Source: Candidatus Omnitrophota bacterium
GTDB taxonomy: Bacteria; Omnitrophota; Omnitrophia; Omnitrophales; Aquincolibacteriaceae
DNA length: 64,000 nt
Assembly (NCBI GenBank): GCA_030698625.1
Contig: JAUYMS010000030.1
Span: 148,016-212,015, forward strand
Direction: 5' to 3'
In this document: positions 20,336 through 55,600 of the stretch, one piece after another
Layout of the letters: every line of letters begins with the position of its first letter
Numbering within the stretch: position 1 is the stretch's first letter
Translations under genes and position numbers: made by a program
Notes under the pieces: generated by a model
What the model saw: the letters and a program-made list of their open reading frames with translations, nothing else
Databases searched by the model: none
What the model was told of the DNA's origin: nothing

Positions 20336-23300
20336 ATGAGCAGACTGAGCTTCAAAAAAACGATCGCAGTGATGGCTTTCCTCTGTATGGTTGTTACTCA
20401 AGGGCTGCCTTTTGGCTGGTCTGAGACATGGCAACCGCCCGAAGATGATGTCAACACGCCGACCACTTCTGCGAATGAAGAACCGGCCCCGACGCCCACT
20501 CCCGTTCCTCCGAATCCGAACGACCCTAGTTTGAGTCCGCTCGCAGCCGATGACCGCATTCATACGCTAGATAAGGAAGGCAACGAGGTCACTCTCGGAG
20601 ACAGCACCGGAGGGCTCAGAGTGGAAGCGGTCTCTTTTACGGACGGCGCCGTGTTTGAAATAGATCCTGAGAATCCCGACTTGAGAGTCGTGACCGAAAC
20701 CGACGGGTCCATGCGCAGATACTCCCATATATGGGAAGTGAATTGGGAGACAACCACCTGTCCCCCTAATTCGGGGATGTGTATGGGAATGGCTTCGTCG
20801 GTGACGGCTCCATCACCGGCGAGCGTGCCCTTATATAGAGGCACCTACACTTACGAACTTGATGACGGCACGCGCATCACGAAGATGACCGAGATAAGGG
20901 GCATTCCTCTGGTCGGGGAGCCCGAAGACAATACCCTTGAGGCGATTGTCGCCCGGCACCGCGCAGAGTTGGAGAGCCTATTCAAGAATGCCCATATGGA
21001 AATCCCGGAAAGTGAAATCGATCGTCTGGACCTCGCCGCAACGGACGAGCGCTTGAAAGTCTATTTCGAAATGGCGGCCGCTATCCTTGAGCATTTAAAA
21101 GAAGCGTTAATCGCCACAGGGCATATGAACCCGATGATCTTAGGCGGGGGGCCGGACGAAGCCGTGGCACTCGAAAGCTTTGCAAGCCGGGAGATGGGGA
21201 AGCTTTACCGCCGTGTCATGGCGCTGGCAATTAGGCAGGCGATGGCTCTCGGCGACGGCGACCCGGTTCACCTGGTGCATAAGACCTACGAACTCGCGGC
21301 TGTGCTGCATACCAAGCTATTGCGCGAAGGGCTTTATTACACTCACAGTGATGACGGGGGTCTTTATGGCTACGACGCCTCGAGAATTGCAGAGGCCATG
21401 CCCGGAATCTCTGCAGCGATGGTTCATGGCCTCGCGGCTTCCGGCGACGGCAGCTACTTTTTCCAGAAATTCAGTTTTGTGATGTACAGCCTGGCGGCCG
21501 GAGTCTCACCCCGAGGCGTGCGTGATCTTGTCCTGCGCATTATCGATTTCTACAATGTCGACCTCTTAAGTTTTGACGACCACGGCTCCTATATTGATCC
21601 GGAAAAATTCGGGCTTGCTGTGCTCGGCCAGCTCGAACCCCTGCCGGAGCCGACACCGATGCCGACACCGGAACCGACTCCCATGCCGACTCCGATGCCG
21701 GAGCCGACACCTGAGCCCACACCGGAACCAACACCGATGCCGACGCCGGAACCGATGCCGACACCGACGCCGATACCGGAGCCGACTCCGATGCCCACAC
21801 CCGGTCCCGATCCTGATGACGATGATTACATTGATATCGCGATCAAGAGAACCGTATGCCCCTCCGACGACCGCATGGGCATGCCTTGCTGGCAGGAAGA
21901 CCTGCCTTATGACATGACCGGTCTCGTCGAGATCAGCAGGTATGAGAAAACGGAAATCATAGGTTCTCAACTCATCATTACGGTTTACATTCGCGCGACT
22001 CGCGGGCTGACCCCGCAGCTGGAGCCTGAGCAAAATCGCGAGGTCGACGTCTCAAGGTTCCTGCCGACGGAGTTTACCCTGACGGCCAGTAGTGAGAGCG
22101 GCAGTGAGCTATTCTTTCACGCCGGCTCCGGCACGGGAACTATGCTGGAACTCGGCAAGGAGCGCACTAGTGACACCACCTGGCAATTTACAATTCTCTA
22201 TATACCCGATCCAGCTCTTGAGGGAGAGCGGGTCGAGTGGACCTGGCAGGTTTCTGCCGGAGAGGTTACTTCCGACCCTGCCATAATCACCATGATCTAC
22301 CACGATGACCGGCCGGGTGCCAATTCCGCGGCCGATCTCCTGGCAGATCATATGAAAGAGAAAGTGATTATGAGTCTGGGGCAGCCGATAGAGGGTTTTA
22401 CAAAGGAGATGCTCCAAGCCGTTTTCTCGGGCCTGATGCCTGAGGACTTTAATTTGGTCGATACCGCGCTGGGGATCTTTCGCTTTGAAGACGGCGTACT
22501 CCGGCTCGACATGAACACCTCCGGTATTATGCATTCAGGTTATGACAGCCTCACCGACGCAGGTTTGCAGAGACTGGCTGAAAATATATCTCAAAGGTTA
22601 GGGATACCGCTCGACGGAGACGGAGTGTTCGACGAGATTCTCGCGAACCTCGGCGGAATCTTGCCGCAACCGACACCGCAGCCCGTTCCCAACACAAAGC
22701 CGGTGGCGAACCTCTATGAAACATCGGGTATTTCGCGTACGCAACCCTCGACCCACTGGTTGACGGGCACCGACGAAGACGCGGACATGCTGGAAGCCAT
22801 GTGGTACCAGGCATTCAACTCGGAGTTGGGATGGGGTGAATTTACGGGTAATACCAGACGATCCGACGACGGAAAAACGACCGAATTCGAGATGATCTTT
22901 CATCCCAACAATCCGCCCGAGAAAGGCAACGGCGACTTTGCGGTTGCGACTTGGCGTGTTACCGACGGCATGGAAACTTCAGACCAGCAAAAAGTAAAAC
23001 TCTTCTTCAGTAATGAGAAAGACAAGCGAGGTCAAGACGACGGCTCAGGAGAAGGCGAAAGTAGCGGCTCCGGTTTTACGAGGTCGCATCTCGATGTGAA
23101 CGGGGATGGTGTTGTGGATGTAAGTGACCTTTACGTTATGGTTAATCAGGGGGTTCAGGTCAATGAAGACTTAAACGGCGACGGAGTCATTAATCAAGAG
23201 GATACCGACATTGCTCTGCAACAGCTCTTCACCGCGCTTCATAAGCGGCCTTGTAAGAATATGTGGGGCTATTGCGACGACGAGACGGATGTAGATCCGA

Positions 23301-24010
23301 CACCGACGTCAACGCCGTGGGAAACGCCGACACCTACACCGTGGGAAGAAATACCGACACCTACGCCTTTCGAAACGCCGACCCCGACGCCGGATTACAA
23401 TGACGGTACGTGGGAAATAGACCAATGTACCTCCGGCGCACTGCTGTGGAATGATGACGGCTCCTATACCGACACGACTGAGTGCACCTACAAGAAAAAG
23501 AAAGCCCGTGAGGAGATAACACCGACACCCACACCGAACGACGGTGATTTAATCTGCTCGCCCGGCATGATCGATCCTGACGGGACTGACCACACGACCT
23601 GCACCCGCGCGATGCCGAGCATTGCAAGCGTTCTGAAGATGCCTCATCGTATCGCGAATATTTTTGCGACTCTTCGCACGTTGAGCCCGCACAGCATTAT
23701 GGAAGGCATGGGGCATCAGATTGCCAGGGAGCAGCGAATGCAGCAAATGTACGAGAATCAGGGACGCGCCGATAAATCCGAAGAAGACGACGAAAAGCCT
23801 CCTATGCATTTCGCAGCCTACGCCCCGGTAATGCCCGTTATTTCACCGGTACAGCCCAGAGTCGAGCCGGCCTACCATGAGTATCGCCGCGCCTTTCATA
23901 GCCTGCGGTCTGCGATGACCCGATTCAACTCAGCCTGGAGCATGCTGAGCTCTGCCATGCAGATGAGCCTACGCTACCAGCGCGACCTCGAGAAACACTC
24001 CGAAAGCTAA
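20336..24010 (+). CDS. large secreted protein (1,224 aa) with Pro/Thr-rich linkers and a dockerin-type double Ca-binding repeat
   Basis: Signal peptide [29 protein letters not shown]. (PEPTPMPTP)n linker at about 21640-21830 and [18 protein letters not shown] at about 23290-23400. Dockerin-like [14 protein letters not shown]...[12 protein letters not shown] at about 23090-23230. Sits 127 nt downstream of the giant ORF on the same strand. Confidence 0.8.
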
Positions 24011-28350: not shown

Positions 28351-28440
28351 CCCTGTACCCCTTCCAAACCCTGTACCCCTTCCAGAAGTGCCGGGTTAAA
28401 AGTGAATAGACCGGACGCCGTCCGGCGGGGAAGGGTAAGG
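28351..28440. repeat. composite intergenic repeat: tandem 18-nt CCCTGTACCCCTTCCA(A/G)A units, then AAGTGCCGGGTTAAAAG, then a REP-like hairpin ACCGGACGCCGTCCGGCGGGGAAGGGTAAGG flanked by an inverted AGTGAAT/ATTCACT repeat
   Basis: Read directly from the sequence. Related copies are at 32456-32484 and 36290-36306 (hairpin part) and at 47601-47648 (CCTTCCGGAAGTGCCGGGTTAAAA + CCTGTACCCCTTCC part). Confidence 0.6.
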
Positions 28441-31822: not shown

Positions 31823-32455
31823 GTGAGAACAAATAGTAGTTTAAGCCGCTCGTTTTTAGCGATGGTCATGATGATACCCGTCTTAGTGCAAGCGACCTAT
31901 GCTGAAAGTCAGATAAAATTCAAGCATATTCCTATGCAATACATTGTGGCCTTGAGTGATGCGGGCGAAAACTCCGGGAGCGATGCGCAATTGTGGGGGC
32001 TGTGGTATCAAGATCCGGGCCCTCGAGGATGCCGGTTGGAAAACTACAAAGAGTTAAAGGATACGGGCGTTGCCCCGGCCCAATGGGCATTTGACGGAAA
32101 AGATTGGTGGCTTGAGGAGCACGGCCTGATTATGGAGAAGCCAACCTTTCCGCTGCCGCCCGGAAAATACGTCGTGACTGGGGGGCGGGAAGTCACGAGC
32201 GTACTTACGGTGGACCCCATGGACGAAAGTGGTTCGCAGCACTGGCAACTCGATCATGACGCGAAGCTTTATGATGTGACACACCTGGCCTGTCATGCGG
32301 CACGCTATACACCGGCTGAAGACAATGCTTCTTGTTCGCCGGACATGGTAGAAAAAGCAGCCTTTCCGGTAGCTCCTGGTATTTCAATGCCTTTAATCAA
32401 CGGTTGTAACAAAAAAGAGTATGCGGTTCTTTTTGTGATAGGTGAGGCTGAATAA
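31823..32455 (+). CDS. secreted hypothetical protein (210 aa, several Cys)
   Basis: GTG start; signal-peptide-like N-terminus (LAMVMMIPVLVQATYA). No family recognised. Confidence 0.5.
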   Translation: MRTNSSLSRSFLAMVMMIPVLVQATYAESQIKFKHIPMQYIVALSDAGENSGSDAQLWGLWYQDPGPRGCRLENYKELKDTGVAPAQWAFDGKDWWLEEHGLIMEKPTFPLPPGKYVVTGGREVTSVLTVDPMDESGSQHWQLDHDAKLYDVTHLACHAARYTPAEDNASCSPDMVEKAAFPVAPGISMPLINGCNKKEYAVLFVIGEAE

Positions 32456-32484
32456 CCGGACACCGTCCGGCGGGGAAGGGTAAG
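32456..32484. repeat. REP-like hairpin repeat CCGGACACCGTCCGGCGGGGAAGGGTAAG immediately after a stop codon
   Basis: Near-identical to 28411-28440, with a 6-bp stem CCGGAC/GTCCGG. Confidence 0.55.
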
Positions 32485-33268: not shown

Positions 33269-34966
33269 ATGAAATATTTATCTAGATTCTTCAGCTGTTT
33301 TGTTCTTGTCACTTCGATTCCTTTTACGCCGCTTTCTGCCGAAACGGTCACGGTACCCCCGGGCACTTCATTTGAAGATATCCTCGCAAAAGGCCGGGCA
33401 TCTGCAAACGAGAAGAACTATATTGATGCCGTGCGTCATTTTTATGACGCCCTAAACCGCAAACCGCTTCACCCTGAAACCCTGTATTACCTTGGGCTCA
33501 CCTACCAAAACCAGGGTGCGCCGCTGATTGCGCTCTTTTGGTATGAGGCCTATCTTGAAGCCCATCCGGACTCGCTCATAAAAGATCAAGTCGAGGCGGA
33601 AACAAGGCGCCTTTACGCCAGTGTGCGAAAACAAGCAGAGTTACTTCTAAATCTTGCGCTGAAGACCATTAATGAAATCCCATCGCAACTGCCGCTGGAT
33701 AAACGGGTGTTGATGGGCAAGCTTGCCTTTATCTATACGGTCACGGGCAACATCGATACGGCAGTCAAGCTCGGAGTCAATTCGATTTACAGCGGAGCGG
33801 CAACAGATTCCTACCAACGTTTTTATGGCCAGTATCTGGCAGACCTGTTTCATTATAAGGAAGCGTTTGCGATTGTCGGAGAAATGACAGACCCGGCGGA
33901 GATCGATAAGCTCCTTTATTCGATCGGTTATTTTCAGGCGATGCGCGATGAACATGATGAGGTTGAAAAAACGCTTGAGCAAATGGCGCCCTCGGGGAAC
34001 AAAGAAAAGCTGATTCAGCTTTGGACGGCACGGCTCACGCGTGAACTTAAAACAGACCGTGCCAGAAAATGGGCCGAGCAAGTGCCGGAGGAATCCCCCT
34101 ATTTCGCGGAGCTTTGGCAGAGCCTCGCGATGGGATATCTAAAAGCCGGAAGATTAGAAGAGGCAAAAAAAATCATCCCGAACTTAAACGGATCTTTTAC
34201 GGCAAGAACCATCAGCGGTGAAGGGGCTCTAGTCTTAGAAGAACTCAACAAGCTGGAAAAAGACAAAGACCGGCCATGGCTTCGAGAATATTATTTTTTC
34301 CATATCACCACAACGCTTGCCTGGATGGGGGAACTTGAACTTTCAAAAAAAGGATGTGAGCTTGCCAAACAAGCCGCAGAACCGGACGGCAACACAGCAC
34401 AAGGGGACTACGCGGAACTTGCCTGTGCCTTTTATTTTTATGAAGCCGGCGAGTTTCACCAGGCATTGTCTCAGATTCAAAAGGTGAGTCCCGAAAACCA
34501 AGGGTCTTTTGGGGTGTCGTTCTTTTGGCGGCTCATGACAAAAGAAGACCTGACGAATGCCGAGAAGATGCTTTCACAAATGAAGCCATCCCCGATTCAA
34601 GCGGGGCTTCTGCTTGAACTGAGCCGCGGGGCATATGCCGCAGGGATGGGTGAGGTTTACTCGAAATGGATCACACAAAGCCTCAAGACCGCCATTAATT
34701 TTCGCCATGAGATTTTACTTCGTCAGATCAGCCGTGATGCGGGTCGCTATGGCGACAAAGCGCTCAGTGATTATGCTGCGCAGGCCGCGCGTGTTGCGCG
34801 CTGGAGCACCTACGCTATGAAATACAGTGAAATCCAGGCAACAAGTTCGATAGCCTCTTATCTCGATCAGCATAGGCCGGATGATTTGAGGGAACTGGCA
34901 CAGAACTTAATGGATGCGGCGGTGCATTATGTGGTCATGGTGCAGGCACTCAAAAAAGAGTCATAA
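33269..34966 (+). CDS. secreted TPR-repeat protein (565 aa)
   Basis: Signal peptide MKYLSRFFSCFVLVTSIPFTPLSA and TPR-like helices (YYLGLTYQNQGAPLIALFWYEAYLEAHPD...). Confidence 0.55.
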   Translation: MKYLSRFFSCFVLVTSIPFTPLSAETVTVPPGTSFEDILAKGRASANEKNYIDAVRHFYDALNRKPLHPETLYYLGLTYQNQGAPLIALFWYEAYLEAHPDSLIKDQVEAETRRLYASVRKQAELLLNLALKTINEIPSQLPLDKRVLMGKLAFIYTVTGNIDTAVKLGVNSIYSGAATDSYQRFYGQYLADLFHYKEAFAIVGEMTDPAEIDKLLYSIGYFQAMRDEHDEVEKTLEQMAPSGNKEKLIQLWTARLTRELKTDRARKWAEQVPEESPYFAELWQSLAMGYLKAGRLEEAKKIIPNLNGSFTARTISGEGALVLEELNKLEKDKDRPWLREYYFFHITTTLAWMGELELSKKGCELAKQAAEPDGNTAQGDYAELACAFYFYEAGEFHQALSQIQKVSPENQGSFGVSFFWRLMTKEDLTNAEKMLSQMKPSPIQAGLLLELSRGAYAAGMGEVYSKWITQSLKTAINFRHEILLRQISRDAGRYGDKALSDYAAQAARVARWSTYAMKYSEIQATSSIASYLDQHRPDDLRELAQNLMDAAVHYVVMVQALKKES

Positions 34967-34967
34967 G

Positions 34968-36275
34968 ATGAAAAAAACAATCTTCATTATGATCTCAGTC
35001 ATGCCCCTTTCAATCAATGGCTTCGCTTACGTTCCCGATGTGGGCCCGGGTCACTGCGTTGCCAATTGCGACGCGCCGGATTACTCAAGCTCTTCGTCGA
35101 GTTCTTATTCGTCTTACAGCTACGATTCCTATTCCGCGTTGGGTGATTCTTTTTATCAGCTCGGGCAAAGTCTGGGCCAAAGCATCGCTGACAGCTGGGC
35201 GCAGGCCGCAGCAAATCAACAAACAGGGCTCAGTTACAATTCTTATGGAAACTCAGCCCTTGCCACCGGGAACTGGGATGATGCGATTTCGCAATACGAA
35301 CAGGCCTTGGCGTATCTCCCAAATAATTATGTGGTGCAGCAAAACCTGAAGAAGGCAAAAAGCGGACGCTCCAATAAACAAGGTGCCGATGCTCATGCGC
35401 GCGGAGATTATGAAAGCGCGCTTTACTATTACCGGGAGTCGCTTGAAATGGACCCCGGCGACCATGTTGTCCGCAATAATTACCGCGTGACCAAGAAAAT
35501 GCAGCGGCAAAAAAATGCGCATGAGCGCGCGGATCGTCTTGAAACTTTAATGGCAGAAACGAGCCGCGAACTTCAAAAGGAATTTGGCGATGTGACAACC
35601 GAGGCAGAAAATGTATCTGCGCCGCGTGAAATTGATTTTAATGCCTTGAATGCAATCTCAAGCAATCCCAATGCGGGCAAAGGACTGCGTATCAAGAGTG
35701 ATATCCCGATGCCTATACAACGCGAAAGCGCCGAAGACCGCGCGTTTAAGTTTGATAAGATTAAAGACATGCCCGAGGTGGATAAGGCGATTGAGCTTGC
35801 GAATCAGGCGTCGGTGAAGTGGGAAGAAACAAAAGAGTGGGTGGGTGACCAGGTTGAAGGCGGTGTGAAAGCGAAATTGATTGAAACCATTGAAAGCCAA
35901 ATGCCCGAGACCTATCACACTTTAAAGGGGATCAAGGAAGAGACCGAGGCCCTTTATGAGAAAATCGGCGGAGAACATAAAAAGACGGCATCCGGTGCGT
36001 TTGATCTTATGCGTGAAGGTGTGGACGAAGCGGGAAGCACTTCGGTGACGGGAGTCGTGGATGAAAAAATCGACCGGTTTATTGACGCGCGCGCAGCAGG
36101 CTATACAGATATGGCGGATGAGATCATTTCAGATAAAGTGGGCGGCAAGGTTGACGAACTGACACAGTTTGAGGAGCCCGACTGGACCGCTGAAAAATCC
36201 ACGGTGGTCTCGATTGATAATAAAAAGAGCTACGACCGTGAGCGCGCCGAATACCTCAATAAGCACGCGAGATAA
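34968..36275 (+). CDS. secreted Ser/Tyr-rich, TPR-containing hypothetical protein
   Basis: Signal peptide MKKTIFIMISVMPLSINGFA, a SSSSSSSYSSYSYDSYS stretch and TPR-like AISQYEQALAYLPNNY...GDYESALYYYRESLEMDP. The track ORF starts at 34914; the ATG is at 34968. Confidence 0.55.
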   Translation: MKKTIFIMISVMPLSINGFAYVPDVGPGHCVANCDAPDYSSSSSSSYSSYSYDSYSALGDSFYQLGQSLGQSIADSWAQAAANQQTGLSYNSYGNSALATGNWDDAISQYEQALAYLPNNYVVQQNLKKAKSGRSNKQGADAHARGDYESALYYYRESLEMDPGDHVVRNNYRVTKKMQRQKNAHERADRLETLMAETSRELQKEFGDVTTEAENVSAPREIDFNALNAISSNPNAGKGLRIKSDIPMPIQRESAEDRAFKFDKIKDMPEVDKAIELANQASVKWEETKEWVGDQVEGGVKAKLIETIESQMPETYHTLKGIKEETEALYEKIGGEHKKTASGAFDLMREGVDEAGSTSVTGVVDEKIDRFIDARAAGYTDMADEIISDKVGGKVDELTQFEEPDWTAEKSTVVSIDNKKSYDRERAEYLNKHAR

Positions 36276-36315
36276 AGAACCGTAAAAACAGACCGGACGC
36301 CGTCCCGTGAACCGC

Positions 36316-36446
36316 ATACCGGTATGCGCGCTCATTTCACGGCAACGCGGGACGCGGTTCTTAAAGTGCTGGACCCGGCCCGGCTGCGGTGGCTTTCCTT
36401 CAGCCATTTTGAGGTCGACGAGTGCGGGGCCTTGAACGACTGGCTC
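36316..36446 (+). repeat. left copy of a 131-bp direct repeat (97% identical to 39262-39392) carrying a fragment of an MBL-fold gene (…[44 protein letters not shown]…)
   Basis: Alignment by eye: 4 mismatches in 131 bp. Preceded by a truncated REP-like unit AGACCGGACGCCGTCC at 36290-36306. Confidence 0.8.
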
Positions 36447-36651
36447 CGGATCCTTCATCAGTTCGGCGACGGGGCCCGGGCTCTGAATCAAGACGAGGTT
36501 TGATTGAGTTTATCGCTATATAATACCGCGCTTCGTTAAATAAAACATCACAAAAGATGTATTATTGTCTGTTATTGTATTGAAATAAAGCATCAAATAA
36601 GATATATTATCTATAGATAATGCCGTTAATACATCAATTAAGAGGTGTAAA

Positions 36652-36999
36652 ATGGAATTCGAAACACTGACAGAGAAAGCAACCCTAAGCGAACTGGGAC
36701 AAAGAATAGCTTGCCACCGTCTCAACAAAAATATGACTCAGAGTGCACTTGCTATCGAGGCTGGGGTCTCCAAGCCGACAATTCAGCGCGTTGAAAGTGG
36801 CGCCTCCACTCAAACTTCAAACTTAATCCGCATTTTACGCGCGCTCAAATTACTCGGCAATGTGGATGCTTTAGTCCCGAAGCCGCCTATCAGCCCTGTT
36901 CAGCAGTTAAAGTTGCAGGGAAAGCTCAGACAACGCGCATCCTCAAAAAAGGAAAAGAAAAGAACTGATGGTAGTTGGTCATGGGGTGAGGAGACGTGA
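36652..36999 (+). CDS. hipB: XRE-family HTH transcriptional regulator, HipB-like antitoxin
   Basis: HTH motif LNKNMTQSALAIEAGVSKPTIQRVESG. The stop overlaps the GTG start of the downstream HipA-like gene by 4 nt (GTGA). A low-GC promoter region lies at 36500-36650. Confidence 0.75.
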   Translation: MEFETLTEKATLSELGQRIACHRLNKNMTQSALAIEAGVSKPTIQRVESGASTQTSNLIRILRALKLLGNVDALVPKPPISPVQQLKLQGKLRQRASSKKEKKRTDGSWSWGEET

Positions 37000-38297
37000 C
37001 TTATGCAGCCGTCAACCTGTGGGGTCGTAGCATTGGTGCTGTAAGCTGGGATAAAGAAAAGAACCTAGCTAATTTTGAATATACGCCGGCCTTTCTCAAG
37101 AGTGGCATTCAGGTAGCCCCACTGATGATGCCTCTTTCCTCCCACGTTTATTCTTTTCCGGCAATCTCACGTGAAACATTTTACGGGCTACCCGGTATGT
37201 TAGCGGACTCTTTGCCGGATAAGTTTGGGAATATGTTGATCAATAAATGGCTTGAAAGTGAGGGGCGGCGCGTAGAGAGCTTTAATCCGGTTGAACGGCT
37301 TTGCTACATCGGAGAGCGCGGTATAGGTGCGCTTGAATATGAACCAAGTCAGGGCCCTAAGGTCAGTGGGGCACATAGTCTGCACGTGGACGCCTTGGTT
37401 GCCTTGGCTAGTGAAATTCTCACAAAACAAGAATCATTCAAAACAGCCTTCTCTGAATCCGAAAAAGAACAGGCCATGAAAGATATTCTTCGTGTAGGCA
37501 CTTCGGCGGGTGGTGCACGCGCAAAGGCGATTATTGCATGGAATCCTAAAACCAATGAAGTTCGTTCCGGAAATATAGATATAGCGGAAGGTTTTTCGTA
37601 TTGGATTTTAAAATTTGATGGGGTGAAAGGGAATAAGGATAAGGATCTGGAAGATCCCGAAGGCTATGGTCTGATTGAATATGCTTATCACAAGATGGCG
37701 GCGGCGGCAGGTATTAAGATGATGGAATGCAGGATTTTGCGCGAAGGCGGCCGTTCCCATTTTATGACAAAGCGTTTTGACCGTAATGAAGCAGGGAAAA
37801 AAATACACATGCAATCACTTTGTGCTTTAGCCCATTATGATTATAACCAGGCGGGTGCATACTCCTATGAACAAGCCATGCAGGTTATGCGTAAATTACA
37901 GATGCCAATGGAGAGTCTTGAAGAACAATACCGCCGCACGGCTTTTAATATTATTGCGCGCAATCAGGACGACCATGTCAAGAATATTGCCTTTCTTATG
38001 GGCAAAGCCGGGAACTGGGCTTTATCTCCAGCCTTTGATGTTACTTATAGTTATAATCCATCAGGGGGTTGGACGAATAGGCACCAAATGTCGGTGAATG
38101 CCAAACGTGACGACTTCGTGAAAGAGGATTTTATTATGTTTGCAAAAAATGCCGCTTTAAAAAAAACGAATGCTATGGATATTCTTGAGGAAGTGCAAAA
38201 TACCGTCAAAAAATGGAAAAATTTCGCCGACCGATGTGGCGTACCCAAGGCCATTGCCCAAAAGATAGCTAAGACACACCGCACAAAAATTCTCTGA
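36996..38297 (+). CDS. hipA: HipA-family Ser/Thr kinase toxin (HipA N- and C-terminal domains)
   Basis: 433 aa. Catalytic-loop motif ARNQDDHVKNIAFLM...SPAFDVTYS matches the HipA DDHxKN motif. A HipA-N-like region is present (couples to the upstream HTH gene). Confidence 0.8.
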   Translation: MTYAAVNLWGRSIGAVSWDKEKNLANFEYTPAFLKSGIQVAPLMMPLSSHVYSFPAISRETFYGLPGMLADSLPDKFGNMLINKWLESEGRRVESFNPVERLCYIGERGIGALEYEPSQGPKVSGAHSLHVDALVALASEILTKQESFKTAFSESEKEQAMKDILRVGTSAGGARAKAIIAWNPKTNEVRSGNIDIAEGFSYWILKFDGVKGNKDKDLEDPEGYGLIEYAYHKMAAAAGIKMMECRILREGGRSHFMTKRFDRNEAGKKIHMQSLCALAHYDYNQAGAYSYEQAMQVMRKLQMPMESLEEQYRRTAFNIIARNQDDHVKNIAFLMGKAGNWALSPAFDVTYSYNPSGGWTNRHQMSVNAKRDDFVKEDFIMFAKNAALKKTNAMDILEEVQNTVKKWKNFADRCGVPKAIAQKIAKTHRTKIL

Positions 38298-38401
38298 TTA
38301 GTAAGCATAACCGTAGAAAGTTACCGGGTACCAAAGGGACACGTAATAAATATAGGTGCCAGGCAAAGGCGTAACGTTGGAGCGAAATTGTAGGAGAGGG
38401 A

Positions 38402-39109
38402 ATGGACCTTGATCTCTTGTTATCAGAATTGAAAAAGAATAAAGACCCCGGCACAGGGCTGGGGATAGCAAGCCAAGCAGTCAATGGTATAAATGAACTT
38501 GTCGTGGATGCTGGGCGTGGCAAATTTCCTTGGTCGCGGATACCTGGGAAGGGAACCAAGGGGGAACTTTGGTATAGGAACAGGCTATATTGGCTAAAGA
38601 CTATACCACTTGACGGTGACGGTTGTTTTATTGCGCTTCATTCAGAATCGCCAGTTTATCAAAAAAATAAAAAGGGACGGTGGCCTGCGGATTTGTTTGG
38701 CCTATTTCACGAGCGCCAGACGACGATGCTCTGCGTTATTGAACTGAAGGCCGGAACGGCAGGTGATAATGTGCTTTATGCTATCGTTGAAGGAGCCCGC
38801 AATCTTCATCTGCTTCGACAAGCCCACCCGGCTTTAGTGAAAAGCTGGGTGGCTGCAGGCAAAGCCGATCGGAACGCATGGGGAAAGGGCAATCCCTTAG
38901 CCGAAGTTTCCAAGAAAAGAACGAAATTAATTATATTGGGTGACTGGGCGTGGATCAAAGCGCAGGGAAAATGGAAAGGTGCCGCAAAAACCTTGCGTGG
39001 CTTGCTGGCAAATAGCCTAAAACAAGATTTATCCATTCACTGTTTGAATAAAAATGCTAAGCCAGCGAGTAAGCCGCATGCGCTTTTGCCTGTCTGGCGA
39101 CGGCTGTAA
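38402..39109 (+). CDS. hypothetical protein (235 aa), possible PD-(D/E)xK nuclease-like fold; third gene of the HipBA-like module
   Basis: AGGAGAGGG RBS. Candidate motifs are a PLDGDG...CFIAL beta-strand and MLCVIELKAG (ExK). No confident family match from sequence alone. Confidence 0.5.
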   Translation: MDLDLLLSELKKNKDPGTGLGIASQAVNGINELVVDAGRGKFPWSRIPGKGTKGELWYRNRLYWLKTIPLDGDGCFIALHSESPVYQKNKKGRWPADLFGLFHERQTTMLCVIELKAGTAGDNVLYAIVEGARNLHLLRQAHPALVKSWVAAGKADRNAWGKGNPLAEVSKKRTKLIILGDWAWIKAQGKWKGAAKTLRGLLANSLKQDLSIHCLNKNAKPASKPHALLPVWRRL

Positions 39110-39145
39110 ATTCTGACAACGGTTTTTAACAGAAGGAGAATCAAA

Positions 39146-39581
39146 ATGGCCTCAATTTCTGAGATGGCCCCTGACATTTACCGCATCAGTACCTTCGTGC
39201 CTGAATGGAATCTTCAATTCAATCAATTCTTGGTCAACGATGAAGAGCCCCCTGCTGTTTCATACCGGTATGCGCGCTCATATCACGGCAACGCGGGACG
39301 CGGTTCGTAAAGTGCTGGACCCGGCCCGGCTGCGGTGGCTTTCCTTCAGCCATTTTGAGGTGGACGAGTGCGGGGCCTTGAACGAGTGGCTCAGGTTGGC
39401 GCCGGAGGCCACGGCGGCGTGCAGTGTGGTGGGGGCACGCGTCAATCTAGCTGATTTTTCCGAACGGCCGGCGCGTGAATTAAATGACGGAGAAGTCTGT
39501 GGATGCAGTACAGGTTCTGCCGGGGACGGGCATCACTTTCTTCTCGCTCCGCCCGATTTTCTTCAAAAAGAATGTCATTGA
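39146..39581 (+). pseudogene. MBL-fold (flavodiiron/ODP-like metallo-beta-lactamase fold) gene remnant, frameshifted and 3'-truncated
   Basis: 39146-39308 encodes [38 protein letters not shown] (strong AGAAGGAGAA RBS). A -1 frameshift near 39255 continues as [16 protein letters not shown]...[11 protein letters not shown] (HxExDH-like MBL motif). The combined length of about 145 aa is far too short for this fold. Confidence 0.65.
39262..39392 (+). repeat. right copy of the 131-bp direct repeat (see 36316-36446)
   Basis: 97% identical to the left copy; lies inside the MBL-fold pseudogene. Confidence 0.8.
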
Positions 39582-39686: not shown

Positions 39687-42600
39687 ATGCTTTCCCTCTC
39701 GGCCGTCAAATCAAAATTTTTTGTCAGCGTCATCACGTTCTCCTTTTTTCAATTAATCTTATCGCCCAGCTCTGTTTTGGGGCAGCCTCCCGCGATGCCC
39801 CCGGCAGCTGTCTTTTCTGCCGGTCAGCCGGAGGTTCCTGTTGATGAACCGCCGCAGCAGGAAAAGAAGAAGCCCAAGGGCGCGGAGGAGGCCCCTGCAG
39901 ATTTTTTTTCGCCGCAGACATTATCTTCACCCGATAACCCGCCATTCGGTGACGGCTTCGATATTCAGGAGTTGATCGATCTGAGTCTCTGTTATTTTGT
40001 TCCCGCCAACGGCCTTGTCGAAAGCACGTCGGGTTATCCGTTTGAAGGATTTCGTCAAACGGATTTCACGCAGCCGACGGCCATCGGTTTTTACGCGCAG
40101 TTGTTGTCCAATGTAATTTCCGGTGATTTGCAAACAGAGCACATGTCTAAAGCCGATGCGATTGCGGGTTTGGACCGATTGACGGATTCGCTGCTCGTGG
40201 ATCAGGAAAACTTGGGGTATAAGGGACTGCTGCCCTGGATGGGTTATGACGGCACGAATTGGAATCGAAAGAACGATCTCTTTGGCCAACAGGTCGTTTT
40301 GGGAGATAACGCGAATTTGTCGGTGGCTTTGGGTGCAACTGCCGGCGCTCTTTCCGACGAAAGCCTGGCCGGCGATGCGACGGTCCAGGGTATCAAGGAC
40401 AAAATAGATGCCTTCCTGGAAGGGCAGAGGGAAGGGTATGAGTATCTGTTTAACCCCGCGGCCGGAAGGTTCCGGCGGGGATGGAACTTCACGAACAATA
40501 GTTGGGTGGGCGGAGACAATGGTACCGCGCATTTTTTTGGAGATGAGTTTCGCCAGGCCATTCTGTTCTTGTCGATGCGCTATGATTTTCCGGAAACTGT
40601 CTATACGAGTTTGGAGACTTCGACAACGGAGTATACCTTGTCGACCGGTGAGGTGATTTCGACGGTAATGCCTTTTGACGGCGGGGCGTTTCAAATGCTT
40701 TGGCCGACACTGACGATGCCGGAAACGAATGACCCGCGCCTCAAAACGATGTTGCGCAATTTTGTGACGATAGCGCTAGACCATGCCAAGGAAAATAACC
40801 TACCCGGTTTTCTCTCCGCAAGTTACGGCGGTATCGATGAGTATGTCTCGAATGCGGGCATTACGGAGCTTTCCTTTAACCCCGCGCCCCGCAACGAAAC
40901 GATAGCCTCCCTTTATACCTTGGGTGCGGCCTACATGATTGCCCCGAATGAGATTGAGGTTTTTCTCGAACAGATTTTCCAAGCCCATCCGGATCTCATC
41001 ACCAATCATGGGTTGTGGGAGGGTGTCAACGTCGCGGCGGGAGAGGTCATTCAGGAGCAGATTGTGGCCAATGTCTCAACCTTTGTCCTCGGTCTGATCG
41101 GTAAGGGCCCCGAACATATGACGCGCTATCTTCAGGAGAAGGGGTTGGCTTGGAAACTTGAGGCGGCCTACCGCCCCGAAGAGCTCATTGATATTATCGC
41201 TGACAGCAACAACGCCTTTTCCTGGGGAGGGGGCTTTATTACGGCAGGGCGCTCGGATGACGAATACCATATTACGGCCAACCGCTTCAACTTCGTAGGC
41301 ACGGCCTTTTTGCATGACGGTATCAATATTGCGGGCAAGACCCTGCGGATCAAGTACTGGTCGGACACGGCTGTCGGCTCTACCAAGATCGAATTCAAGG
41401 AGCGGCGTGGGGGCCAACTCGACACTCGCCTCGTGCTTGACGAGGTACGGTTTGCGGATACAAACGGGGAGGAGCGGGTCATAGAGGTCGAACTGCCCGC
41501 CTCGGTAGGACTTTTCGATATTGATGAGACCGTGATTACGATCAACTCCTTATTCGGAGCAGGTTTGAGTATAGGCTTCACGGATTTTGACATTGTCCCG
41601 ACGGATTTTAAGGACCTCGTCTCAGACGGTACGGGAGCTTTTTCATGGGGCAGCCAGATTACGGGTTATCCGGCGGGCGACGAGTATGTGATTCAAAGCC
41701 CCGCTTTTACGACGAGCGGCACGGCGTTCCTGCAGGGTGGCATTGATGTCTCTGGCGGGCAACTCAAGCTCCGGTATCGCTCGACAACGGATGTCGGCAA
41801 TATGAAACTGCAATTCAAAGAACGCACGGAAAGCGGTCTCGAGGTAAGGCTCGACCTCATCAACTATGTGCTTGAGAATACGGGCGGTGCCGAGAGGGAA
41901 ATATTGATCGATCTGCCTGTGTCTGAATTTCTCGAACACATCGACGAGATCGTGATGTTGTTAACGGGGGGGGCGGGAAATCCCCTGGATCTGGTCATTA
42001 CGGATATCGACATGCGGCAATACGAGGTTATGGATGCCCTGGCTCAGAGTCAGAATATTTTTATCTGGGGCGATCAAGGTGTTTCAGGCTTTCTCACGAA
42101 TGAAGGCTATACCATTCAGAGCGCCGTTTTTCATTCCGCGGGCGCGGCTTTCATTCAACCCGATTTCGGTATCAATGTCGCGGGCAAAGACTTGAAGATT
42201 CGCTACAAGTCCACCACGGCTGTAGGGAAGGTAAAGTTCGAGCTTAAGGAACGTTCTTCGCAAGGGCTTGAGATCATGCATGTTACCGAGGAAGTGCTGT
42301 TTGTGAACACGGGCGGCGAGGTGCGCGAAGTAACCGTCAACCTGCCGTTGCTTCTGGATCTTTTCAACCTGCACGAGTTAGTCATGTTGATTACCGAAGG
42401 GGCCGGAACGCCCTTGGACATGACTATCACGGGAATCGAATTCTCAGACCGCAATGAAAGTGATCTGATCAGTGAAAGCACGGGTAGTTTTTCCTGGTCG
42501 AACACGAACCCCATTACGGGCTTTGCCCAAGGCGACGAGTACCACCTTTCGAGCCCCTGGTTTTACTCGAGTGGGACGGCTCTGCTTGAAGACAGCGTCG

Positions 42601-42875
42601 ATCTCTCAGGCCGTGCCCTGCGACTCACCTACAAGTCCACGACGGATGTCGGCACGTTGAAGCTGGAGTTCAAGACGCAAACGGCGAACGGCGTAGAGGT
42701 TGTTTATACAATCGACGACATCGAGCTGGTGAATACGGGAGGTGACGAGTATGTCATTGTCATCAATCTCCCGCCGCTGGAAGGCCTGATGGATATCGAC
42801 GAAATCTTATTTCTCCTCTCCGACGGCACCGGTGGCGCGCTCGATCTTACGATCCTCGACTTCGATATTCTGTAG
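39687..42875 (+). CDS. secreted 1,062-aa protein: N-terminal roughly 500-aa domain of uncertain (possibly glycoside-hydrolase-like) type plus four roughly 150-aa tandem repeat modules
   Basis: Signal peptide MLSLSAVKSKFFVSVITFSFFQLILSPSSVLG. Four C-terminal repeats with consensus FSWG..I.G...GDEY.I.S..F..SGTAFL...ID..G..L...YKSTTDVG..KLEFKER...GLEV.L.L....NTGG.ER...I.LP.....DIDEIV.LL..G.G.PLDL.ITD.D (about nt 41200-42872). Confidence 0.7.
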   Translation: MLSLSAVKSKFFVSVITFSFFQLILSPSSVLGQPPAMPPAAVFSAGQPEVPVDEPPQQEKKKPKGAEEAPADFFSPQTLSSPDNPPFGDGFDIQELIDLSLCYFVPANGLVESTSGYPFEGFRQTDFTQPTAIGFYAQLLSNVISGDLQTEHMSKADAIAGLDRLTDSLLVDQENLGYKGLLPWMGYDGTNWNRKNDLFGQQVVLGDNANLSVALGATAGALSDESLAGDATVQGIKDKIDAFLEGQREGYEYLFNPAAGRFRRGWNFTNNSWVGGDNGTAHFFGDEFRQAILFLSMRYDFPETVYTSLETSTTEYTLSTGEVISTVMPFDGGAFQMLWPTLTMPETNDPRLKTMLRNFVTIALDHAKENNLPGFLSASYGGIDEYVSNAGITELSFNPAPRNETIASLYTLGAAYMIAPNEIEVFLEQIFQAHPDLITNHGLWEGVNVAAGEVIQEQIVANVSTFVLGLIGKGPEHMTRYLQEKGLAWKLEAAYRPEELIDIIADSNNAFSWGGGFITAGRSDDEYHITANRFNFVGTAFLHDGINIAGKTLRIKYWSDTAVGSTKIEFKERRGGQLDTRLVLDEVRFADTNGEERVIEVELPASVGLFDIDETVITINSLFGAGLSIGFTDFDIVPTDFKDLVSDGTGAFSWGSQITGYPAGDEYVIQSPAFTTSGTAFLQGGIDVSGGQLKLRYRSTTDVGNMKLQFKERTESGLEVRLDLINYVLENTGGAEREILIDLPVSEFLEHIDEIVMLLTGGAGNPLDLVITDIDMRQYEVMDALAQSQNIFIWGDQGVSGFLTNEGYTIQSAVFHSAGAAFIQPDFGINVAGKDLKIRYKSTTAVGKVKFELKERSSQGLEIMHVTEEVLFVNTGGEVREVTVNLPLLLDLFNLHELVMLITEGAGTPLDMTITGIEFSDRNESDLISESTGSFSWSNTNPITGFAQGDEYHLSSPWFYSSGTALLEDSVDLSGRALRLTYKSTTDVGTLKLEFKTQTANGVEVVYTIDDIELVNTGGDEYVIVINLPPLEGLMDIDEILFLLSDGTGGALDLTILDFDIL

Positions 42876-43281: not shown

Positions 43282-43338
43282 GCGACAGACACGAAAAATG
43301 GGGACAGGCATGAAGGCCCCTAAAGGGATGTGCCAATA

Positions 43339-43368
43339 GCCAGTTGCGAAAGTCGTCCAATACGGGGA
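43339..43368 (+). repeat. copy 1 of the conserved 30-nt motif CCAGTTGCGAAAGTCGTCCAATACGGGGAG
   Basis: Near-identical copies at about 45290-45319 and 46397-46426; a variant (GTCGAAATGCGTCCAATAGGGGGAG) at about 43819-43844. Coordinates are accurate to 1-2 nt. Confidence 0.7.
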
Positions 43369-43384
43369 GTTTTTTCAATACAAT

Positions 43385-45255: not shown

Positions 45256-45535
45256 ACGGAAAAAGAAGTGAGCTCTCTTCTGTCATCAACCAGTTGCGAA
45301 AGTCGTCCAATACGGGGAGCCATACCCAGGCGTTACTACCATAATGCGGCAACACCTTTCTTTTGGTGTTGTTATCGATGTGGTTTGTCACCAGCCGAAA
45401 CTGTTCCCACCTTTTTATTTTCAACATAAATGACCTTGTCTAGCCTACAATTCTATATAATCTATCAATGGCAAACAATTTCATAGCGCACGCCCAAGAA
45501 TGGGCTGTTAGCGTCTCTAAGGAAGGTTCTCAAGT

Positions 45536-46390
45536 ATGAGTTATCATCCGATCGTGGGTAAGCGCTTTAACCGATGGCCAAGCATTTATTTTCTAGGCGG
45601 AATTACTATAACAACTCTTATTGGTTGTCCGCTGTATTTGTATTTCTATGGTATTTCATGGAGTGGTTTTCTTATTTTTGTTGGAATGTCTGTTTTAACA
45701 CTTCTTTCAATTACGGCAGGCTATCATAGGTTCTACTCCCATAAATCTTATCAGGCCGTCTGGCTTTATCATTTCTTGACCCTGGGTTTTGGCGCGGCCG
45801 CCTTGCAACAGTCAGCTCTGAAATGGGCCTCCCTTCATCGGTCTCATCATCAATATGTGGATACGGAGAAAGATCCCTATAATATTAAGAAGGGATTTTT
45901 TTACGCCCATGTGGGGTGGATCTTATTCTGGATTCGTTCCGTCGATCTCACGAACGTCAAAGACTTACAGCAGAATAGGCTCCTCATGCACCAACACCGG
46001 CATTTTCAAATTTGGGCAGCCGGATTCGGCGTGGTTTTACCGCTCATTATTGGCTTTGCTTGCGGAGAGTTATTCGAGGCTGCTTTATTTGGAATCGGGG
46101 CAAGGCTTTTTATCGTTTTCCAGGTTACCTTTTTTATTAATTCTTTCGTCCATACCTTTGGTAGCCAAAAATATGGGAAAACGATCAGCGCTCGGGACAA
46201 TTGGTTAGGGTCTCTCCTGACTTTTGGAGAAGGTAATCACAGCTTTCATCATCGCTTTCCCAATGACTACCGGAATGGTATCCGCTGGTATCATTGGGAT
46301 CCAGGCAAATGGGCCATTTACCTTCTCTCACGGCTGGGACTTGTATGGGACTTGAAGCGGACTTCCAAACAGGCCTTGGCTTTGTTCTAG
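45536..46390 (+). CDS. acyl-CoA (delta-9-type) fatty acid desaturase
   Basis: Three His boxes: HRFYSH, HRSHHQY, HSFHHRF (in GEGNHSFHHRFPNDYR). Membrane topology is typical of the DesC/stearoyl-CoA desaturase family. Confidence 0.8.
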   Translation: MSYHPIVGKRFNRWPSIYFLGGITITTLIGCPLYLYFYGISWSGFLIFVGMSVLTLLSITAGYHRFYSHKSYQAVWLYHFLTLGFGAAALQQSALKWASLHRSHHQYVDTEKDPYNIKKGFFYAHVGWILFWIRSVDLTNVKDLQQNRLLMHQHRHFQIWAAGFGVVLPLIIGFACGELFEAALFGIGARLFIVFQVTFFINSFVHTFGSQKYGKTISARDNWLGSLLTFGEGNHSFHHRFPNDYRNGIRWYHWDPGKWAIYLLSRLGLVWDLKRTSKQALALF

Positions 46391-46489
46391 CATTAACCAG
46401 TCGCGAAAGTCGTCCAATACGGGGAGCCATTGCGGAAGAAGCGCTGGAGGAGTAAGGTCCTTCGCCCCCGGGAGAACCGTTATAGTTAC

Positions 46490-47623
46490 ATGAACAAAAT
46501 ATTTTCGATTTTTCTGGCAGGACTACTCCTTAGTTTTGCCTGGCCGCTAAGGGGCCAGTTCGGACATGAACACGGGGCCATGATTCCCGGCGCAGCGGCC
46601 GCGGTTATTACCGCCGTTTTTATGGCCGGCGACAAATGGCGGTCTTGCTTCGCACAGGCGGTCATTTTCGGCAGCCTGGGGTTTTCGATCGGGGGAACAT
46701 TCTCCTACGGATCGCAGGTGGCCGACATTGCGGCCGCTTCCGATTTTGGGGACGTGATCCCTCAACTCATTCATGTGTTTGTCACCGGCGCGGTGTGGGG
46801 GTGGCTGGGCATGCTTTTTCTCGGCTTTGCCTCGGCGGAGCGCGAGATCACTTTTCGGGACACGCTGGTTCTGACGATTGTGGGCGGCGGTGCGTGGTTG
46901 GCGACCGCCGTTTTCAACGCGGGTCCCGCCCTAGCGTGGACGGCGGGCGGCGCGGCGTTGTTGCAGGCTTATAATGCGCTTTGGAAAAGATCGCGCACCG
47001 TCACGCTATTTTCGGCGTTCGGATTTTTTGGATTCGGGCTCGGATTTTTAATTTCGGCGCTTGTTTTGCACTACGGGGCTCACGGTGTTCTGCCGGGCGG
47101 CTGGTGGAGATTGCGTGACCAGATTTGGGGCTTCATCGGCGGCATTTCGGTGCTGTTGGCGGCACGGTTCACGGCGGCGCGCGGACTCATGCCGGCTCCG
47201 CTCGGGGGGGTGGCCATCCGGCGTGCCGGATTCATCACCCTGGCGTCGCTGGTCACAGGGGTCAATGTCTGGAACGTTTACGGCAAGTGGTTCAAAACGA
47301 CTCCGACCGTTCCCGAGCCCTTTTGGCCGACGGTCTATTTAGTCGTCTGCGCCGTGACTTTGGCGGCCATTGCCTTTTACTTTTTGACGTCGGCACCGGA
47401 AATGTTTTCGGGCGAGGGGCTTACTCGGACGCTCAGGGGAAGCACACTTTTTTTCTGTTGGTTTCTGGCCGTGCTTGCCATTCTCAAATCGGTCGTATAT
47501 TCGGGGTGGGATGTCTGGGAACCCGCCTTTGCGCTTTTATTCATAGACTGCGTGATCCTAACCGTCGCAATCCCTTGGATTCTGAAGAAAAATACCGTAT
47601 CCCTTCCGGAAGTGCCGGGTTAA
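46490..47623 (+). CDS. polytopic integral membrane protein, hypothetical
   Basis: ATG at 46490 (the track starts at TTG 46430, overlapping motif copy 3). Multiple hydrophobic helices; no family recognised. Confidence 0.5.
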   Translation: MNKIFSIFLAGLLLSFAWPLRGQFGHEHGAMIPGAAAAVITAVFMAGDKWRSCFAQAVIFGSLGFSIGGTFSYGSQVADIAAASDFGDVIPQLIHVFVTGAVWGWLGMLFLGFASAEREITFRDTLVLTIVGGGAWLATAVFNAGPALAWTAGGAALLQAYNALWKRSRTVTLFSAFGFFGFGLGFLISALVLHYGAHGVLPGGWWRLRDQIWGFIGGISVLLAARFTAARGLMPAPLGGVAIRRAGFITLASLVTGVNVWNVYGKWFKTTPTVPEPFWPTVYLVVCAVTLAAIAFYFLTSAPEMFSGEGLTRTLRGSTLFFCWFLAVLAILKSVVYSGWDVWEPAFALLFIDCVILTVAIPWILKKNTVSLPEVPG

Positions 47624-47624
47624 A

Positions 47625-48641
47625 ATGATCCTGTACCCCTTCCGAAAGGTCCCCGCAATTGTTTTGATCTCCATGGCTTATGGCTATTTCGCTTTAATCT
47701 TTGCTTTAGGGAACAGATACCAGATTAACCCGGACGGGGTGGCTTATTTGCGTCTCGCAAAATATCTTTCCGAGGGGCATTACCTTTATTCGATCTCCAA
47801 CTATTGGTCTCCGCTGATCATTTGGTGCTTTGCCCCATTTTTATTTTTGGGTGTGGACGGCCTGATTACCGCACGGGTTGTCATCGCTGTATGGGGGTTA
47901 TTGTTTTTATGGGGAACCTGGCTTCTTTCTAACCGGTTTGATTTATCTTATCCGTTTAAAAGCCTGGCGGGTTTAATCGCTGCGCTTACGATCGCAAAGT
48001 GGACATCGGCAATTATTACTCCCGATATTCTGATCGCAGCTTGTTTGGCCTTTTATTTTTATTTAGTCACGGACGCGGATTTAGTTAAAGGCAAGCAAAA
48101 GGCCTTTCTTTGCGGCATGGCGGCAGGTGCGGCCTATTTAGCAAAGGCCTATGCGCTGCCTTTTTTCCTAATTCATTTTCCGGTGACAATTTTCATAAGA
48201 AGACTGACGTCTGGCCGAAACAGCCGCTTCCCCCTCGGGAAAATGGTGAAAACCTTATGTTTTGGGATGATGGGTTTTTCATTGTTGGCGGCCCCGTGGA
48301 TTGGTGTGATGTCTGTAAAGTATTCTACATTGACGATTTCCGCTGCCGGACATAAGCCGGAGCCATACGCGATTCACTCCTGGGAAGCCCCTTCGGATTT
48401 GGCGTATAAACATTGGTCGCCTTTTCAAAGCTTTGAAAATTTTAAACATCAGTTCAAAGTCTGCTTAAAGAACGCGGCGGCAATCGCGCTTTATTTTGGA
48501 ATATTGGGCGGACCGGTTCTCGTTCTCCTTCCTTTTTTAGTTCTGACCGGCGCTAGTTTTATCGTTTGCCGCGGTTCCGATGAGCGGCTTTCTCCGCTGC
48601 GGGAAATGTATACAAAGGTTTATACATTGGGTATTATCTGA
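47625..48641 (+). CDS. integral membrane protein, possibly a GT-C (ArnT/PMT-like) glycosyltransferase family member
   Basis: The N-terminus overlaps the 33-nt repeat element. An alternative in-frame ATG lies near 47673 (MAYGYFALIFAL...). Family assignment is tentative. Confidence 0.45.
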   Translation: MILYPFRKVPAIVLISMAYGYFALIFALGNRYQINPDGVAYLRLAKYLSEGHYLYSISNYWSPLIIWCFAPFLFLGVDGLITARVVIAVWGLLFLWGTWLLSNRFDLSYPFKSLAGLIAALTIAKWTSAIITPDILIAACLAFYFYLVTDADLVKGKQKAFLCGMAAGAAYLAKAYALPFFLIHFPVTIFIRRLTSGRNSRFPLGKMVKTLCFGMMGFSLLAAPWIGVMSVKYSTLTISAAGHKPEPYAIHSWEAPSDLAYKHWSPFQSFENFKHQFKVCLKNAAAIALYFGILGGPVLVLLPFLVLTGASFIVCRGSDERLSPLREMYTKVYTLGII

Positions 48642-54163: not shown

Positions 54164-54240
54164 GCGCCCGTAGCTCAATTGGATAGAGCATCTGCCTTCG
54201 GAGCAGAGGGTTACAGGTTCAAGTCCTGTCGGGCGCACCA
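54164..54240 (+). tRNA. tRNA-Arg(TCG): tRNA-Arg (anticodon TCG), CCA encoded
   Basis: 77-nt cloverleaf: acceptor GCGCCCG/CGGGCGC, D-arm GCTC-AATTGGATA-GAGC, anticodon stem TCTGC/GCAGA with loop CTTCGGA, variable GGGTT, T-arm ACAGG-TTCAAGT-CCTGT, discriminator A, CCA. Confidence 0.85.
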
Positions 54241-55397: not shown

Positions 55398-55600
55398 TCT
55401 CTAGAAGCACTTTCCTTCGTTTGCTTTTCGGCGGCGGGAGCGAGACGAGCGCGGTCCCGAAACCGGATTCCTTTCCCCGAAAGTTAAATCCTTCTCGTCC
55501 TTGAAATAGTAACCTCATAATCATTCTTCCTCTGGTAGAACCTAGTATAGCCGACAAGTAAAAATGTTAATTCCCGGCATCTGGTAAAAACAAAAGTTTG

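Follow-up and report, generated by a model that had tools for sequence, protein, structure and literature searches.

In a 64,000-nt stretch of the genome of a Candidatus Omnitrophota bacterium (GCA_030698625.1, contig JAUYMS010000030.1, positions 148,016 to 212,015; hereafter the window), an islet carrying a hipBA toxin-antitoxin (TA) module and a third open reading frame (ORF3) is bracketed by two direct copies of an internal piece of one gene, a member of the ODP family (PF19583) of metallo-beta-lactamase (MBL)-fold proteins. An initial annotation of the same DNA took this for an insertion between repeats of a disrupted gene. Such an insertion predicts the order ODP codons 1-83, insert, ODP codons 39 to the end; what is seen is a repetitive extragenic palindromic (REP)-like unit, ODP codons 39-83, insert, ODP codons 1-118. 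The N-terminal ODP piece lies to the right of the insert and the left copy is foreign on both sides, and this order contradicts insertion into an intact ODP gene, by transposition or Campbell recombination alike. We give about an even chance to the reading that the locus is a decayed accessory-gene hotspot with a rearrangement scar, and not a discrete mobile element.

Results

Two copies of an ODP gene fragment

The direct repeat pairs 36315-36449 with 39261-39395, both on the plus strand, over 135 nt with five mismatches (96% identity) and a spacing of 2946 nt; the 131 bp at 97% given initially were essentially right. The mismatches fall at 36336/39282, 36361/39307, 36416/39362, 36440/39386 and 36447/39393 (left/right), three of them non-synonymous and two synonymous, and the longest identical core within the repeat is 54 nt. 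The window contains a 21-mer of the repeat exactly two times, where shuffled sequence is expected to give none. Beyond the 135 nt, the left and right flanks gave no alignment above shuffled controls. A longer homology, in which the left copy would be the right copy with an internal deletion, was rejected because its alignment score did not rise above the shuffles.

Both copies are ODP-family coding sequence, codons 39-83, with homologues 60-78% identical, which bears out the earlier derivation of the two repeats from one MBL-fold, ODP-like reading frame. The left copy is an orphan internal piece (HTGMRAHF...NDWLR) that starts 3 nt past the REP-like unit. On this side tblastn with ODP homologues covers 36315-36452 only, and no ODP sequence adjoins the copy at either end; its 3' side passes into unrelated GC-rich sequence and then into the AT-rich hipB promoter. 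The right copy is continuous with ODP codons 1-38 on one side and codons 84-118 on the other.

The ODP remnant to which the right copy belongs (39146-39500, plus strand) covers the first 118 or so of at least 216 codons. It has its own ribosome-binding site (AAGGAG, 39133-39138) and start codon (39146), and its start-proximal sequence begins 36 nt past the ORF3 stop. The N-terminal piece, given as 39146-39257 by the initial annotation, was located at 39146-39250; codons 1-35 lie in one frame, and a +1 frameshift within a C5 tract (39248-39252) shifts the rest of the remnant to another. By tblastn, ODP homology ends at about 39500, near codon 118; the annotated 113-aa reading frame extends to 39581. 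PF19583, a domain of 194 positions starting at residue 23, is matched over profile positions 1-72 at 24.5 bits, below its cutoff of 27.2. Given the frameshift and the loss of homology at about codon 118, the right-hand ODP gene is a frameshifted, truncated pseudogene of the PF19583 family, and is dead.

At least four illegitimate junctions are packed into 3.3 kb: between the REP-like unit and ODP codon 39 (J1), between ODP codon 83 and the hipB upstream region (J2, 36449|36450), between the ORF3 stop and the ODP ribosome-binding site, and between ODP codon ~118 and the downstream sequence. The source is a 217-kb contig of a metagenome-assembled genome (MAG), and an independent check was provided by the Logan assembly of run SRR13727534, the only run in which exact-protein look-ups found this population. 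Logan contig L001 (2952 nt) is identical to window positions 36386-39337 and contig L014 begins at 39332; these ends are the very points at which the 54-nt core forces a k=31 de Bruijn graph to break. The breaks imply that the reads hold two entries into the core and two exits from it. As J2, like the ODP frameshift, also lies inside the unique contig L001, the two overlapping ODP fragments are real however the graph is threaded. The k=31 graph does not distinguish the linear arrangement from an empty site plus a 2.9-kb circle.

Composition and mobility of the islet

The islet proper (36450-39145, about 2.7 kb) has a GC content of 45.3% against 51.3% for the window and ranks among the lowest 3% of windows of its size for GC and among the top 5% for tetranucleotide distance; the low-GC segment reported initially is foreign-like on both scans. 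Matches of the islet DNA to plasmids and phages were limited to a weak hipA match on one plasmid. Pfam revealed no transposase in the islet, and neither terminal inverted repeats nor a short target duplication was found at its ends. Insertion of an insertion sequence or transposon was rejected for want of a transposase and terminal inverted repeats and for the 135-bp length of the repeat; we agree in this with the earlier view that a duplication of such length (131 bp as then measured) is not a transposase target-site duplication. Neither an excisionase nor a tyrosine or serine recombinase such as an integrase was present in the islet or, among reading frames of 150 aa or more, anywhere from 28.8 to 50 kb; the flanks contained no Rfam or other non-coding RNA family.

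No close relative or empty site was recovered from the collections searched, so that we infer the history of events from the locus itself. The right-hand neighbour (39687-42875, 1062 aa) appears internally repetitive and has no Pfam or NCBIfam domain; searches of 185k species genomes and of JGI metagenome contigs gave no relative of it. An SSF transporter, a conserved anchor gene 6 kb upstream, has only relatives at most 55% identical, from other phyla.

The hipBA module

Past J2, the hipB upstream region (36450-36651, plus strand) opens with about 50 nt rich in GC and then turns into an AT-rich promoter region. A promoter scan placed a sigma-70-like site at 36580-36608, and a palindrome scan found a perfect 16-nt palindrome (ATTATCTATAGATAAT, 36606-36621) overlapping its -10 element. 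The palindrome is the presumed operator to which the HipB repressor would bind; two relatives (L006 and L007) have palindromes of their own upstream of hipB. The hipB-like gene (36652-36999, plus strand) encodes a 115-aa XRE-family helix-turn-helix (HTH) antitoxin (Pfam HTH_3, 3.9e-8, and HTH_31) with weak NCBIfam couple_hipB and HipB matches. Its stop codon is overlapped by 4 nt by the GTG start of hipA (36996-38297, plus strand), which encodes a full-length, 433-aa Ser/Thr kinase toxin of the HipA family. Couple_hipA (3.6e-19, residues 5-115) and HipA_C (7e-55, residues 169-407) both score above the Pfam gathering threshold, and the catalytic-loop NQDDHVKN and the SPAFD motif align to their counterparts in HipT(Lp) (8ezr), so that the kinase motifs are intact. 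The earlier description of an XRE gene, a HipA kinase with a 4-nt overlap and a 235-aa reading frame was thereby confirmed by the reading frames and Pfam.

More than 8000 relatives of this HipA are known from the searches, mostly about 65% identical and from many phyla, including Omnitrophota and Proteobacteria. The three nearest are 79, 75 and 71% identical, and in each the same 115-aa HTH gene precedes hipA. In Escherichia coli, the operon is under repression by HipB, which also neutralises HipA; HipA that is left free phosphorylates an aminoacyl-tRNA synthetase and stops growth. The pair described here resembles that canonical system in its HTH gene overlapping a two-domain HipA, its intact motifs and its promoter palindrome, and differs in the length of HipB (115 aa, 88 in E. 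coli). The HipA protein matches only HipT-type chains among PDB sequences and belongs to a large environmental clade. Taken together, the pair is an ordinary canonical HipBA module, probably functional.

With three adjacent genes on one strand, including a HipA-family kinase, the locus also recalls HipBST. In that system, however, HipT lacks the N-terminal domain, which HipS supplies, whereas the present HipA carries its own Couple_hipA, and the third gene here is PD-(D/E)xK-like and unrelated to HipS. HipBST identity was rejected on the grounds that Couple_hipA lies inside HipA and that ORF3 has no HipA-related match in Pfam, NCBIfam or PADLOC.

The initial annotation also treated the three genes as one cassette, a claim that did not hold. 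The nearest hipBA relatives lack ORF3: downstream of hipA lies an APH-type kinase gene in one and a convergent dnaE in another, and the third contig ends at hipA. A search for the same three-gene cassette elsewhere found relatives of ORF3 never beside hipBA, instead beside a beta-CASP MBL nuclease gene. No ODP gene occurred near the relatives of either hipBA or ORF3. Judged by these neighbourhoods, the islet is two unrelated modules, hipBA and ORF3.

ORF3 and its usual partner

ORF3 (38402-39109, plus strand) is an intact gene for a 235-aa protein of a rare family, present here as a solo copy. It has no match in Pfam, NCBIfam or PADLOC, and when 1.84 billion representative proteins were scanned exhaustively with HMMER, only 24 relatives emerged, all at most 46% identical. 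Word-seeded search returned no relatives, nor were any found in viral contigs, metagenome contigs, plasmids or phages. An alignment of 19 sequences shows conservation of E55, E82, D97 and E114-x-K116, with D97, E114/K116 and E55 invariant or nearly so. The AlphaFold2 model (predicted local distance difference test score, pLDDT, 92) has an alpha-beta-beta-beta-alpha-beta core in which D97 starts strand 98-104, E114-L-K116 ends strand 107-116 and E55 lies in helix 54-65. No match in the fold searches reached significance; the weak hits at the top were restriction endonucleases and PD-(D/E)xK viral proteins. The core topology and the placement of the conserved residues in the model make ORF3 PD-(D/E)xK-like.

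In every neighbourhood long enough to read, the relatives of ORF3 adjoin a gene for an MBL protein of 436-458 aa. The MBL gene overlaps its partner or lies 9 nt downstream in L009/L010/L011 and L004, is one gene away in L012/L013 and is convergent in L085; the pairs were mapped at L004:2185-3518, L009:487-2558, L012:7019-10531 and L085:6266-10121. These MBL genes are mutually orthologous (34-70% identity) and encode beta-CASP nucleases of the RNase J / CPSF73 kind. PADLOC, Pfam families and NCBIfam equivalogs gave no assignment for either the ORF3 family or its beta-CASP partner, and the pair is a candidate for an uncharacterised two-gene system. Neighbours of the pair include AbiEii (L004), a WYL regulator (L085), and IetA-like and ZorA-like genes (L012), a defence-like setting that may point to an anti-phage module.

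No homologue of the beta-CASP partner occurs anywhere in the window. The ODP fragment was considered as a degenerate partner of ORF3 and rejected, since the partner MBL proteins and ODP share no sequence similarity; that an MBL-superfamily gene follows ORF3 here too is, on this comparison, a coincidence of superfamily. ORF3 would instead be the stranded half of a different two-gene module whose usual partner has been lost.

The REP-like unit at the left edge

A REP-like palindromic unit (ACCGGACGCCGTCCCGTGAA, 36292-36311, no strand assigned) lies 17 nt past the stop of a tetratricopeptide repeat (TPR) gene (34914-36275), and J1 is 3 nt to its right. Palindromic units of the GGACGCCGTCC type stand directly past gene ends at 28410, 32455 and 36292, and this dispersal of ACCGGACGCCGTCC-type palindromes past gene ends indicates that the left flank is native up to about 36311. 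The dispersed unit (ACCGGACGCCGTCCGG...) has related copies at 28410-28439 and 32455-32484, besides that at 36292-36311, and a further one at positions 1-27 of L006, a Logan contig of another run that carries the hipBA with 75% HipA identity. The match of L006 to the copy at 28413 is 22/27 nt, and the 11-nt core of the unit, identical to the first 11 bases of L006, was met once in 1.25 Mb of unrelated loci. L006 has no ODP fragment between the REP unit and the hipBA pair that comes after it. The shared unit suggests a related organism and a REP-adjacent placement of hipBA in it; as a post-hoc observation, this fits REP-adjacent intergenic DNA as a host of hipBA modules.

The REP unit that the initial annotation had noted beside the islet is therefore real. 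As to the insertion hotspot that it had proposed there, a REP unit at the left edge is consistent with a rearrangement-prone spot; the geometry of insertion into a gene did not stand. In 1990 Shyamala and colleagues reportedly described tandem duplications joined at REP sequences. The present locus is similar in having a dispersed palindromic REP-like unit 3 nt from J1, but here only one junction is at a REP unit, with no second one at J2, and the unit's part in the rearrangement is conjectural.

Another dispersed repeat, of 36 nt and 86% identity, occurs at 28366-28401 and 47590-47625 beside short tandem copies of CCCTGTACCCCTTCC; one of its copies is directly upstream of a REP-like unit.

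Other features of the window

A tRNA-Arg(TCG) gene (54164-54240) has its 3' 42 nt repeated at 63415-63456 (100%) and at 55755-55796 (83%). These 3' fragments lie inside a 200-nt direct repeat (92%; 55599-55798 and 63259-63458), and the repeats enclose about 9 kb with genes for an ice-binding-like PEP-CTERM protein, a resistance-nodulation-division (RND) efflux system and a methyltransferase, and no integrase. The region looks like one or two decayed tRNA-targeting islands.

A family of 52-nt repeats (43322-43373, 45272-45323 and 46379-46430) encodes, on the minus strand, the N-termini (MAPRIGRLSQLVDD...) of three paralogous small reading frames; the low-GC stretch around them includes MerR, thioredoxin-like and MerC genes as well. 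Near the left end of the window, a giant reading frame of 6396 aa (1019-20209) is followed by one of 1224 aa (20336-24010) with Pro/Thr/Glu-rich tandem coding repeats of 12-18 nt at 21.6-21.8 kb.

Discussion

Reconstructing how an islet of foreign composition came to stand between two fragments of one dead gene requires that the order of those fragments be accounted for. In the history that we favour, the native REP-like unit past the TPR gene is followed by about 2.7 kb of foreign-composition DNA made up of two unrelated modules. One is an autonomous type II hipBA module with its own promoter and a palindromic predicted operator; by homology, its HipB would repress the operon and neutralise HipA, and free HipA would phosphorylate an aminoacyl-tRNA synthetase and arrest growth. 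The other is the PD-(D/E)xK-like gene, stranded by the loss of its beta-CASP nuclease partner. This foreign DNA abuts the dead ODP gene, ending 36 nt upstream of the ODP start codon. A local rearrangement would then have put the orphan copy of ODP codons 39-83 at the boundary between the REP unit and the islet, either by tandem duplication of a block with codon 83 at its end and a subsequent REP-anchored deletion, or in one step by a templated (template-switch) insertion at a replication fork stalled by the REP unit. Neutral drift afterwards would have left the copies 3.7% apart, and a single frameshift in the 355 nt of ODP is, by our estimate, about what would be expected from a neutral history giving that pairwise divergence. 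The left copy would thus be a scar and not the means of insertion.

The same two copies could still recombine and loop out 2,946 bp. Cells in which this happened would lose hipB together with hipA, and HipA would be expected to select against the loss, which would help islet and scar to persist. A similar arrangement is found in the TA-stabilised island SGI1, where the sgiAT TA pair likewise lies in a segment that can be lost through flanking direct repeats. SGI1 is a 40-kb mobilisable island that bears an integrase and whose stabilisation has been shown experimentally (PMC5006074); the segment described here, in contrast, measures 2.9 kb and has no recombinase, and its addiction effect is a presumed one.

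Several points weigh against this history. As neither a relative nor an empty site was found, the order of events is one that we infer. A divergence of 3.7% is large for an in-situ duplication 2.9 kb apart, and different ODP alleles would explain it more directly. No microhomology suited to template switching is evident at J1 or J2, and duplication followed by deletion needs two events whose endpoints coincide with the REP unit and with the edge of the islet.

Entry of the islet by way of the repeat itself is the main alternative and takes up the question of alleles; we regard it as rather unlikely. The incoming foreign DNA would have carried hipBA, ORF3 and, from the ODP gene of another strain, the 5' part. 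Whether circular, through Campbell-type RecA recombination, or linear, through homology-facilitated illegitimate recombination, it would have joined an ODP remnant already resident; the shared 135 bp would have been duplicated and the copies would be alleles, which would account for the five mismatches. A circle of the islet and ODP codons 1-83, crossed with a resident REP-ODP(39-118), gives the observed order in one step. The islet is compositionally foreign, and the ODP start-proximal sequence lies so close behind the ORF3 stop that the two might have travelled together. Yet the resident ODP would have to have been truncated exactly at the REP unit, and the donor would need codon 83 already joined to the hipB upstream region, which is more events than the local rearrangement requires. 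No donor-like arrangement was found, the relatives of hipBA and ORF3 having no ODP gene nearby, and the weak hipA match was the only DNA match in plasmids or phages. Homology-facilitated illegitimate recombination with orphaned gene fragments is documented at type VI secretion system (T6SS) and Rhs loci (PMC5361080), and the Rhs, contact-dependent inhibition (CDI) and T6SS effector-immunity arrays described there resemble the present locus in that part of a gene persists as a direct repeat next to horizontally acquired modules, while transposase and integrase are lacking. Those arrays recur at a conserved anchor, however, whereas here an internal 135-nt piece has non-ODP sequence on both sides and the gene is dead; displacement of the Rhs/T6SS kind leaves each copy one native side, and the left copy has none.

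A degenerate site-specific island that targets the 5' part of a coding gene, its 135-bp copies being attL and attR and its integrase since deleted, seems to us quite improbable. Islands targeting dusA are described as integrating in the 5' part of the gene and bringing a replacement 5' end (PMC8409611). Upstream of the right copy there is indeed a 5' end on the islet side that has its own ribosome-binding site, direct repeats of a target gene are typical att scars, and the same window has a tRNA-Arg gene with repeated 3' fragments around integrase-less cargo. But neither the 2.8 kb nor its surroundings hold an integrase or excisionase, no host-side 5' end stands left of attL, where one is expected, the gene so "restored" is a frameshifted, truncated pseudogene, and the genes of the islet are unrelated modules found in other contexts. 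That the arrangement is a metagenome-assembly artefact, with a 2.9-kb circle or another strain's sequence threaded through the 54-nt core, we judge very improbable: the window comes from a MAG, its population was seen in one run, and the k=31 graph would accommodate an empty site plus a circle, but both entry and both exit variants recur in an independent assembly, J2 lies in a unique contig and J1 requires real junction k-mers. The variant sites flanking the core are 55 nt apart, a distance over which ordinary reads of 100-150 nt should be able to phase them. Least probable of all is the model built on the initial annotation, in which a mobile cassette of three genes entered an intact ODP gene with a 131-bp target duplication. 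Direct repeats of one gene do bracket low-GC DNA, as it requires, but the order it predicts is not seen, the N-terminal codons being right of the insert, mobility genes and terminal repeats are lacking, and the cassette is not conserved as a unit.

A broader reading can be proposed tentatively, as a possibility that we think somewhat unlikely. ORF3 may be what is left of an undescribed nuclease system of two genes, a PD-(D/E)xK-like protein with a translationally coupled beta-CASP nuclease, forming a new anti-phage defence module; the islet may be a decayed defence/TA hotspot beside a REP unit; and the 2,946-bp unit may still loop out, with hipBA penalising its loss. The pair of ORF3 and beta-CASP genes in other genomes is the single lead here that merits follow-up, and complete pairs from other loci, not the solo copy in the window, are the material with which to test the candidate.

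To the source genome the locus adds a further hipBA module, set in an accessory patch beside a pseudogene and a scar, and it matters little. The locus nevertheless carries a lesson: long direct gene repeats around foreign DNA need not mean insertion into that gene, and the sequence in which its fragments stand has to be examined.

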